From positions 416,001 to 480,000 of the forward strand of contig CM000436.1 of the NCBI GenBank assembly GCA_000165345.1: a stretch of DNA of 64,000 nt. The letters run 5' to 3'. The notes below the pieces were generated by a model. The model saw only the letters and a list, made by a program, of their open reading frames with translations. It had not been told where the DNA came from and made no database searches. Both the position numbers and the translations under genes were made by a program. Positions 58,816 through 60,461 of the stretch are shown here, piece after piece (position 1 is the stretch's first letter; each line of letters starts with the position of its first letter).

Positions 58816-59911
58816 TTGCAAAAATGCAGTATCGTCTGTGAGGATATTTTATCCAAAAGATATTGTGAATTAGGAAATAGGTATTTAAGGTTAGATTGGT
58901 TAGTTTTATTAATTTTTGAGAAGGAAACAAGGATGAATTTCCCTTACTTTTTCTGGATTATATTTTCAATATTGATTTGCAAAGTTAGATTAGAGGTTGT
59001 CATAGAGAATGAAGACCCAAAAGCGGATATGAGTGCACTGGAACATTTAGATTCAAGCTTCATGCAAGACAGAGGGAGTGTGGGGATTGAGAATTTGAGT
59101 TCTAATATTGATTTATCTGCAGGTTTTGCAGATAATGAAGCACAGGATAATTCGAATTTAAGCATGGATAAACCAATTGAGGGGATTGATAATGAGAAGT
59201 TTTCTATCGAAGGTTTGGATACAAATGATGGTTTTGAAGAAGTAAAAGATTCAAGTTTCCAAAATCAGCTTGATATTGAGGAAAATAAAAATAGTGATCA
59301 TTCAGTAGGAAATGGTATATATTCAGAAGATAGTATTTTGAATGGAAGCTTTGAGAGTAAGTCAGTTGATTTGAACGATGTAGATAAAGTTTCAGCAGAA
59401 AACAATTTAAATGATAAATTTGAAAATTTGAGCTTTTCAGATAAAAGTGTTGGAGGTTTTGATGAGCAGGGCAAAAATAATGATTTTCCTGAAATAGAAG
59501 AGAACCAGAAAGATTTTTCCAGCGTTGGAAAAGATTTTTCATTAGCAAATAAAGAATCAGGTGAAGAAAATTTACCCGGGGAATACACCTCAACAACAGT
59601 AGTGGAAAGAATGGACTCAGATCAACAAGATTCTCGGTCTAGCATGTTTCGAGAAAGCACTCTTCCAACTCCGCCTCCACAAACAACTGAATCCACAGAA
59701 GTGACTGGTGGTGGTGGTGGTGGGGGAAATGGCAATGGAGGAGGATTCCCAAACACTTCAACATCTGTACCAACAGAAACAACAACAGGTTCCGGAGGTA
59801 GTGGAGGGGGTAGTGGAGGAGGTAGTGGAGGAGGTAATGGAGGAGGTAGTGGAGGAGGTAATGGAGGAGGTAGTGGAGGCAGTGGAGGCGATGGCGATCA
59901 AAACCAAGTGG
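58816..59911 (+). CDS. Mucin-like type-I membrane glycoprotein, exon 1 (signal peptide most likely from the Met at 58933; acidic S/N-rich ectodomain; Thr/Pro then Gly/Ser-rich stalk)
   Basis: MNFPYFFWIIFSILICKVRLE signal-like segment. Ectodomain ends TLPTPPPQTTESTEVTGGGGGGGNGNGG ... TSTSVPTETTTGSGGSGGGSGGG ..., a mucin-like O-glycosylation stalk. Donor G|GTAGGTTA at 59912 (the same GTAGGTTA donor as Sld5 exon 1). Confidence 0.6.
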
Positions 59912-59964
59912 GTAGGTTAAATTTTTATGATATTCTATACGAACTCTGACTTTTATTTTTTTAG

Positions 59965-60461
59965 GACAAAGATCAGACAATGGAGCAGTAATCGGAGGTT
60001 CTATTGCTGGAGCTTTATTAGGAGTAGGAGCTCTTTCAGGAGGATTATCTTGGTTTTTCATAAATAAGAAGAAAGAAGAAGAAAGAAAGAAAAGGTTGAG
60101 GGCAATTAGAGAGAGAAGAGCTAGGTTGGCAGCTTTAAGAAGAAGCGTATCAGAATCAGCAATTAGCGCAGGAGAAAGTGTACCGGGAACAGGAGGAAAT
60201 CCTGTTAGAAAAACAACAAGTACTCCTGGACAGCAATTAGGGTCTTCTTCGTTAGTTACTATTGATACTTCATCAAACTCTCCAAATGTTCTTGATTCAA
60301 GCGCTTTTTCCCTTCCAATATTGGACATACATACAGGAAACAAGGGCTTAAGCAAAAAAACAGGTACAAACAATAATCTCAGAGGATCGGGACAAGGCTC
60401 AGCTAATCCAGCCAATAAGACTAAGTTAAATTTAACTACTGAACTGAGCAATTTTGATTAA
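59965..60461 (+). CDS. Mucin-like membrane glycoprotein, exon 2: transmembrane helix plus basic cytoplasmic tail (includes listed ORF 60096-60461)
   Basis: 53-nt intron (59912-59964) with acceptor ttttttttag|. Phase-1 junction gives G-QRSDNG-AVIGGSIAGALLGVGALSGGLSWFFI-NKKKEEERKKRLRAIRERRARL ..., a perfect TM helix and stop-transfer signal that the ORF track misses. Confidence 0.6.

Follow-up and report, generated by a model that had tools for sequence, protein, structure and literature searches.

The gene cgd8_1750 lies in a 64,000-nucleotide stretch of Cryptosporidium parvum chromosome 8 (GenBank assembly GCA_000165345.1, contig CM000436.1, positions 416,001 to 480,000 of the forward strand), referred to below as the window, with coordinates counted from its first letter. 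It is probably a two-exon gene whose product is a membrane-anchored, acidic type-I protein of the sexual stages of the parasite, not of its invasive zoites. This reading draws on an intron (53 nt in C. parvum) that its orthologues carry at the same place, on a hydropathy and charge profile pointing to a single membrane anchor, and on published transcript tables that place expression in the sexual phase.

Gene model and the 53-nt intron

The initial annotation had proposed that the open reading frame (ORF) called mechanically at this locus ends in a stop codon that splicing bypasses, and the elements of that proposal were recovered. The ORF 58816–59949 is present and ends ...GDQNQVGRLNFYDILYEL before its stop. 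A donor (G followed by GTAGGTTA) falls between 59911 and 59912, and the acceptor ttttttttag ends at 59964, defining an intron of 53 nt. Joining 59911 to 59965 preserves the frame, reads ...DQNQVG-QRSDNGAVIGGSIAGALLGVGALSGGLSWFFINKKKEEERKKRLRAIRE..., and continues into the separately called ORF 60096–60461. The TTG at 58816 was rejected as the start, the first in-frame ATG being 58933, where the signal peptide MNFPYFFWIIFSILICKV, conserved in orthologues, begins. The resulting gene model has the following parts:

58933–59911, + strand: exon 1, 979 nt, encoding the signal peptide, head, Thr/Pro patches, and stalk
59912–59964, + strand: intron, 53 nt, phase 1, GTAGGT...TTTTTTTAG, 77% A+T
59965–60461, + strand: exon 2, 497 nt including the stop, encoding the transmembrane (TM) helix, juxtamembrane helix, and tail

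The spliced coding sequence (1476 nt) ends at 60461 and specifies a product of 491 aa, with ...DQNQVG-QRSDNGAVIGGSIAGALLGVGALSGGLSWFFINKKKEEERKKRLRAIRERRARLAALR... across the junction; unspliced, the frame stops at 59947–59949. The intron is in phase 1 because exon 1 comprises 979 nt. A brute-force search identified 59912–59964 as the only GT-AG excision giving the annotated 491-aa product, and the open 164-codon frame would arise by chance with P ~2e-6 at the base composition of the window.

Comparison across the genus supports splicing. An intron occupies the same place in ten sequences, comprising five annotated orthologues and fragments from five further public assemblies (unannotated Logan/ENA assemblies: L006, L008/L009, L010, and L011), and it is in phase 1 wherever the preceding exon sequence exists. 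Its length is 53 nt in C. ubiquitum, 58 nt in C. canis, 59 nt in C. felis, 144 nt in C. xiaoi, and ~235 nt in C. andersoni, while two of the fragments have 54 nt (L010) and 53 nt (L011); the fragments display GTAAGT...T-run-AG between stalk and TM helix. Unspliced read-through meets a stop in each species checked, and the read-through peptides differ in length and are not conserved. A 1-nt insertion is present in the intron of the close relative L010 (~95% nucleotide identity), whose sole exon-2 indel is 3 nt; at the sequence level this is the classic intron versus exon pattern. Five independent lines concur, and judged from the comparative evidence and existing annotations on which the splice rests, the 53-nt intron is real.

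The alternative, in which the intron is retained wholly or often, the main product is a 338-aa soluble secreted protein ending ...GRLNFYDILYEL, and ORF 60096–60461 is separate or non-coding, appears extremely improbable. Some observations are in its favor, as the 2019 tables name the product 'Uncharacterized Secreted Protein', the donor GTAGGT differs by one base from the GTAAGT of the orthologues, and no junction read was seen. Against retention stand the conservation of exon 2, the best in the gene, together with the small chance probability of its open frame, the unconserved read-through peptides of species-dependent length, the toleration of a 1-nt indel in the intron but only a 3-nt indel in exon 2, and the public models of six species, all of which join the exons. 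A search for the exon–exon junction in JGI metagenome contigs found none, and the exon-2 control was also not found, so this null is uninformative. According to Baptista et al., every intron of their CpIOWA-ATCC re-annotation has RNA-sequencing support, a set that may include the cgd8_1750 intron.

Two further observations concern introns elsewhere in the orthologues. In C. xiaoi (L004, 6713–6771), an extra 59-nt GTAAGT...AG intron is annotated upstream, in the ectodomain, and the other species are without it. The C. andersoni model cand_022470 (LRBS01000048.1; L007, ~6736–6929) contains a pseudo-intron that spans an assembly gap (a run of N) in a Thr-rich repeat, and the annotated protein is therefore probably short of repeat units.

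The gene model is already public: one C. parvum record contains it, and so do annotations for five other species. Without a mismatch, 18,282 nt of the window match CP029787.1 (GCA_031892065.1), which annotates a gene span of 58933–60461 with a product of 491 aa, implying removal of 53 nt. The identity of the gene follows from its flanks. On one side, the minus-strand ORF 53719–58239 (1506 aa) is identical to EAK89379.1, a GGC-family secreted protein of C. parvum Iowa II whose gene is cgd8_1740 in the literature; on the other lies cgd8_1760, which encodes a 139-kDa 'secreted protein' and starts at 61182. Since the studied gene is flanked by these two, matching the order of the genome-wide tables in which the 'Uncharacterized Secreted Protein' cgd8_1750 sits between cgd8_1740 and cgd8_1760 (Tandel 2019), it was assigned as cgd8_1750. 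An exact look-up in a protein collection retrieved neither the spliced 491-aa nor the unspliced 338-aa product. A main-text literature search returned no mention of cgd8_1750, CHUDEA8_1750, cubi_03403, or cand_022470, and cgd8_1750 is not listed in the supplements examined for Oberstaller 2013, Tandel 2023, and the oocyst-wall proteome.

Protein architecture and family

The 491-aa product is divided as follows:

aa 1 to ~21, exon 1: signal peptide
aa 22–243: acidic head, net charge −36, predicted disordered, Cys-free, S/N-rich, five N-x-S/T sequons
aa 244–327, exon 1: Gly/Ser/Asn stalk
59794–59879, + strand: (GGS/GGN)n stalk repeat, coded by 7.2 tandem copies of the 12-nt unit GGAGGTAGTGGA (score 151 in Tandem Repeats Finder)
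aa 334–358, 59985–60059, + strand: TM helix, Gly-zipper-like IGGSIAGALLGVGALSGG
aa 359–386, 60060–60143, + strand: juxtamembrane helix, basic, net charge +10
aa 387–491, + strand, exon 2: Ser/Thr-rich tail

Hydropathy analysis revealed two hydrophobic segments only, at residues 1–27 and 332–360. Because the head carries a net charge of −36 and the segment after the TM helix one of +10, an N-out/C-in type-I topology is predicted. The claim that the second exon supplies a TM anchor and a basic cytoplasmic tail in type-I topology is fully supported by comparative data, by hydropathy and charge, and by public annotation. An AlphaFold2 model of the C. ubiquitum orthologue displays a signal-peptide helix and one continuous helix at residues 333–383, with pLDDT (predicted local distance difference test) values below 50 elsewhere; by such modeling, the ectodomain is intrinsically disordered.

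The composition described from the raw sequence, an acidic S/N-rich head and Thr/Pro patches followed by a GGS/GGN stalk, matches the measured one. The Thr/Pro-rich parts amount to two patches of ~16–20 aa each, the stalk is 43% Gly, and the mature protein is devoid of Cys and contains five N-x-S/T sequons. The label 'mucin-like' fared less evenly. It is weak in C. parvum, where Ser and Thr together make up 17% of the head and 24% of the stalk, and it suits C. andersoni, in which the stalk reaches 47% Ser+Thr. Conserved motifs include LPxPPxQT and GGGFPNTST in the Thr/Pro patches of the ectodomain and SLVTI, LDSSAxSLPxxDIHTGN, and a C-terminal TExSxF[DE] in the tail. The charge of the tail is +10 near the membrane and +1 distally, and the tail has no Trp, with F441 and F490 as its only aromatic residues.

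The contigs of two close relatives (L010, SRR29134127; L011, ERR14760746) end, in the first 100 nt of each contig, within the 12-nt GGS/GGN repeat of exon 1. The break of both short-read contigs at this point suggests that the stalk repeat may vary in length among isolates and is hard to assemble.

Sequence comparison indicates that the cgd8_1750 family is restricted to the genus Cryptosporidium and single-copy. The C. ubiquitum orthologue was matched with E = 6e-128. When a profile of exon 2 was searched against 1.84 billion representative proteins, 10 matches were obtained, nine of which are Cryptosporidium orthologues or fragments, with E-values of 1e-30 to 1e-74 for orthologues. The tenth, a low-complexity bacterial-type repeat (E = 6e-4), was discarded as spurious. 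Sequence searches of Pfam, NCBIfam, and the PDB gave no meaningful match to the product, and no Pfam domain was found at E <= 0.1 except a sub-threshold DUF4748. At all loci with enough flanking sequence, the same gene order was observed: a ThiF E1 gene, the opposite-strand GGC-family gene, cgd8_1750, and a ubiquitin-like 1240-aa gene.

Conservation is distributed unevenly along the protein. Identity to C. parvum is 80–88% in the TM helix, 75–96% in the juxtamembrane helix, 26–59% in the distal tail, and 14–43% in the head, and the TM and juxtamembrane segments of exon 2 form the best conserved region of the gene. Seven glycines of the TM helix (G337, G338, G342, G346, G348, G352, and G353) are invariant in the five aligned species. 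The orthologues, cubi_03403 (C. ubiquitum), cand_022470 (C. andersoni), and those of C. canis, C. felis, and C. xiaoi, which are labeled 'signal peptide-containing' or 'putative secreted', are all uncharacterized; they share the architecture, the intron position, nearly identical TM and juxtamembrane helices, and the motifs LPxPPxQT and GFPN(T/P)S. Their stalks differ, being Gly-rich in the intestinal species, whereas the C. andersoni stalk spans 200 aa, of which Ser and Thr make up 47% and Pro 10%. Since the latter is a Thr-rich repeat, a mucin-like stalk lies within the range of the family, though it is weak in C. parvum.

Sexual-phase expression and candidate functions

Published transcript data place cgd8_1750 late in culture, in the sexual phase, with the gene silent throughout merogony and in sporozoites. 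According to Table S3 of Matos 2019, its FPKM (fragments per kilobase of transcript per million mapped reads) values are 5–13 in oocysts, 0–4 in sporozoites, and 0 at 2 h; at 24 h they are 0 in all four MDBK cultures and 0–8 in IPEC cultures, and at 48 h they reach 124–344 in all five cultures. In the same table, gp60 (cgd6_1080), a surface glycoprotein of merozoites and sporozoites, peaks at 24 h, with values of 11,800–58,300 FPKM. Supplementary File 2 of Tandel 2019 gives mean log2 counts per million (CPM) for cgd8_1750 of 0.96 in asexual parasites (the floor), 7.44 in 'female' parasites in vitro, and 4.43 in females in vivo, which correspond to log fold changes of +6.48 for female versus asexual (90-fold) and −3.01 for in vivo versus in vitro (8-fold). 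The 'female' sort of that study consisted of COWP1-promoter reporter cells from 48-h culture, and the in vivo females were sorted from mice.

These values contradict the initial annotation, which had zoites using the protein as a mucin for attachment. The corresponding candidate, an O-glycosylated, mucin-like adhesin that sporozoites and merozoites would carry on their surface or in their micronemes for attachment and invasion, in the manner of gp900, gp40/15, and CpMuc4/5, is accordingly very improbable. Several features do recall such a protein: the signal peptide, type-I anchor, Thr/Pro patches, and flexible stalk; the C. andersoni orthologue with its Thr-rich stalk of 47% Ser+Thr; and the start of the TM helix, AVIGGSIAG, which resembles the TRAP rhomboid motif AGGIIGG. 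Yet transcripts stay at 0–8 FPKM at 2 h and 24 h, the span in which merozoites are made and gp60 peaks; they are near zero in sporozoites and oocysts, and the asexual sort is at the floor. The protein is also missing from the 798-protein oocyst and oocyst-wall proteome, its Ser+Thr content in C. parvum is low, and its basic to neutral tail without Trp is unlike the tails of gliding adhesins.

The product was also compared with characterized apicomplexan systems. The zoite mucin-like glycoproteins (gp900/cgd7_4020, gp40/15 = gp60/cgd6_1080, CpMuc4/5, and CpClec) are likewise low-complexity, fast-evolving, parasite-specific, secreted or membrane proteins that are probably glycosylated. Both gp900 and CpClec carry a TM helix and a short tail, as cgd8_1750 does. 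The cgd8_1750 product differs from this group in having no long poly-Thr or poly-Ser tracts and no lectin or adhesive domain, and in its sexual-phase expression. With TRAP and MIC2 it shares the type-I topology, the apicomplexan secretory pathway, and an Ala/Gly/Ser-rich exoplasmic end of the TM helix, and the orthologue group has an aromatic beside acidic residues at the C-terminus (NFD, NYE, EFE). AVIGGSIAG is similar in composition to the canonical motif, not identical with it, and the invariant Gly pattern fits a glycine zipper equally well. Unlike TRAP and MIC2, the product has neither thrombospondin-type (TSR) nor von Willebrand factor A (vWA) domains, its tail, basic near the membrane, is neutral overall and lacks a Trp, and the product is not expressed in motile zoites.

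Gamete-surface proteins, represented by HAP2 (cgd8_2220) and by the Plasmodium 6-Cys proteins P48/45 and P230 and P25/28, resemble the cgd8_1750 product in their expression in the sexual phase only, their membrane anchor, and their exposed ectodomain (predicted for cgd8_1750), and the pattern of HAP2 in the bulk sorts is almost identical. No relation of sequence or fold connects them: the product has no Cys and a predicted disordered ectodomain, and searches of Pfam and the PDB gave no HAP2, 6-Cys, or EGF match. HAP2 is moreover pan-eukaryotic, in contrast to the genus-restricted cgd8_1750 family, for which a role in fertilization is only a proposal.

Within the sexual phase, the in vivo samples offer a hint of sex. 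From the in vitro to the in vivo sorts, the experimentally validated male markers fell (HAP2, −2.81; AP2-M/cgd6_2670, −2.33), whereas the female markers stayed level (COWP1, −0.45; DMC1, −0.96; AP2-F, +0.81) (Tandel 2019). Because the in vivo drop of cgd8_1750 is like that of HAP2 and AP2-M, the data suggest, short of proof, that male gamonts, or some other short-lived sexual population caught in the in vitro sort, give rise to its signal. The neighboring cgd8_1740 has 4.28, 8.26, and 5.52 log2 CPM in asexual, in vitro, and in vivo parasites, a change of −2.75 between the last two (Tandel 2019). The two genes diverge from one 693-bp intergenic region (58240–58932) and look like a co-regulated head-to-head pair, expressed in the sexual phase and more in vitro than in vivo.

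A female macrogamont membrane protein, situated in wall-forming bodies or at the zygote surface and acting in biogenesis of the oocyst wall or zygote instead of gamete recognition, is a candidate that we regard as unlikely. It would account for the 90-fold enrichment in the COWP1-promoter reporter sort, for the place of cgd8_1750 among the C. parvum 'female' genes without Plasmodium or Eimeria orthologues, and for the observation that many female-upregulated genes encode signal-peptide proteins tied to wall formation. The 8-fold lower level in vivo speaks against it, being shared with HAP2 and AP2-M and not with COWP1, DMC1, or AP2-F, as do the absence from the oocyst-wall proteome and the want of a Cys-rich or other wall-protein-like domain in a mature protein that is Cys-free.

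The reading of cgd8_1750 as a membrane-anchored protein of the sexual stages suggests the following course of events. Removal of the intron joins the secreted ectodomain to the TM helix and cytoplasmic tail; the signal peptide would send the chain into the endoplasmic reticulum, and the single TM helix with the +10 juxtamembrane helix would fix it N-out/C-in. The protein may then be displayed on the surface of gamonts or gametes, or on the membrane of a secretory organelle, as a hydrated, negatively charged, glycosylated brush whose fast-evolving head would face outside. The conserved glycines of the TM helix and the basic juxtamembrane helix could mediate a conserved interaction, whether oligomerization, contact with a partner protein or acidic lipids, or intramembrane (rhomboid-type) cleavage, and possible binding targets of the basic helix and Ser-rich tail are acidic lipids or a conserved partner in the cytosol. 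A narrower version can be put forward only tentatively: cgd8_1750 could be a Cryptosporidium-specific gamete-surface protein, with its acidic, glycosylated ectodomain engaged in gamete recognition or adhesion and its TM and juxtamembrane segments coupled to a conserved partner. Microgametes are a possible location, proposed from the HAP2/AP2-M-like expression pattern.

Several points weigh against assigning cgd8_1750 to the membrane of the sexual stages. Localization, glycosylation, and topology of its product are predictions only. Neither a junction-spanning read nor a peptide was seen, and the existing annotations that support the splice may partly copy one another. The sex assignment suggested above derives from a small number of markers measured in bulk sorts, and expression of cgd8_1750 is moderate, not high. 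The protein is absent from the oocyst and oocyst-wall proteome of 798 proteins, which does contain cgd8_1760; this absence fits a transient gamete protein, yet it is simply negative evidence. The motifs upstream of the gene, which are also present at an unrelated gene, are not in themselves an explanation of stage specificity.

Upstream region and significance

The bipartite upstream element named in the initial annotation, GGCGCC plus TACCGGTA, is real: GGCGCC lies at 58732–58737 and TACCGGTAAAT at 58752–58762, and the element, which orthologues conserve, has one further occurrence in the window. The features of this region are:

58721–58737, + strand: TGCATG-TTTTT-GGCGCC, an AP2-like box abutting an E2F-like site, ~200 nt 5′ of the ATG
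58751–58762, + strand: ATACCGGTAAAT, second half of the putative bipartite element, with ATACCGG(T/C)A kept in C. canis, C. felis, and C. xiaoi and diverged in C. ubiquitum
58782–58864, + strand: conserved promoter/5′-leader blocks ACCGGGAAAA and GTGGGGATTGCAAAAATGCAGTATCG and a palindrome, a phylogenetic footprint obtained by aligning C. parvum with C. ubiquitum, C. canis, and partly C. felis

Within TGCATGTTTTTGGCGCCAA, GGCGCC is a perfect match to the E2F-like motif DTTGSCGCCH (described in PMC3734150) and stands beside an AP2-type TGCATG. It is kept upstream in four annotated orthologues (C. ubiquitum, C. canis, C. felis, and C. xiaoi), and in two of them, C. ubiquitum and C. canis, TGCATG stands directly before it. 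The 64-kb window contains the exact 17-mer TGCATGTTTTTGGCGCC twice, at 13193 and 58721, with 0 occurrences expected by chance. The copy at 13193 is located ~350 nt upstream of a zf-C2H2_2 (REI1-like zinc-finger) gene at 13563–14723. The motif pair was therefore rejected as a sexual-stage element, and the second copy at the REI1-like gene marks the composite as a recurring promoter module that is not gene- or stage-specific.

Additional elements surround this composite. The sequence ATACCGGTAA trails both copies of the 17-mer, 46 nt downstream of the copy at 13193 (13255–13264) and 14 nt downstream of that at 58721; it is not a described motif, and the arrangement looks like a candidate three-part promoter module with ATACCGGTAA as its third part. 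The GTGGGGATTGCAAAAATGCAGTATCG block (58809–58840) holds an upstream ATG at 58823 that opens a mini-ORF, MQYRL followed by a stop. C. ubiquitum, C. canis, and C. felis retain this ATG, their mini-ORFs having 2–7 codons; it could be a 5′-leader upstream ORF or a DNA-level element. Between the promoter blocks and the ATG of the gene, the palindrome GGATA-N3-TATCC-AAA(A)-GATAT/GGATA (58842–58864) is conserved in C. parvum, C. ubiquitum, and C. canis. On the far side of the gene, past the cgd8_1750 stop and ahead of the cgd8_1760 start, positions 60745–60800 hold GCCGCCCGCC (a GGCGGG-type E2F-like site on the other strand) followed by TGCATGCATGCA, a pair that is probably the cgd8_1760 promoter.

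The case is still useful as a positive control, in that both a real short intron and the right topology were recovered by a reader of raw sequence. The evidence reaches a 'sexual-stage type-I membrane protein of unknown function' and no further, and it contains nothing beyond what CryptoDB-level data already allow. What keeps the membrane protein of interest is that it is specific to the genus and belongs to the sexual phase, with an expression signature resembling that of male markers; it is a reasonable candidate for tagging. The sexual phase drives oocyst production and transmission in Cryptosporidium, and few of its surface molecules are known; if the cgd8_1750 protein is on gametes, it would be worth both tagging and knocking out.

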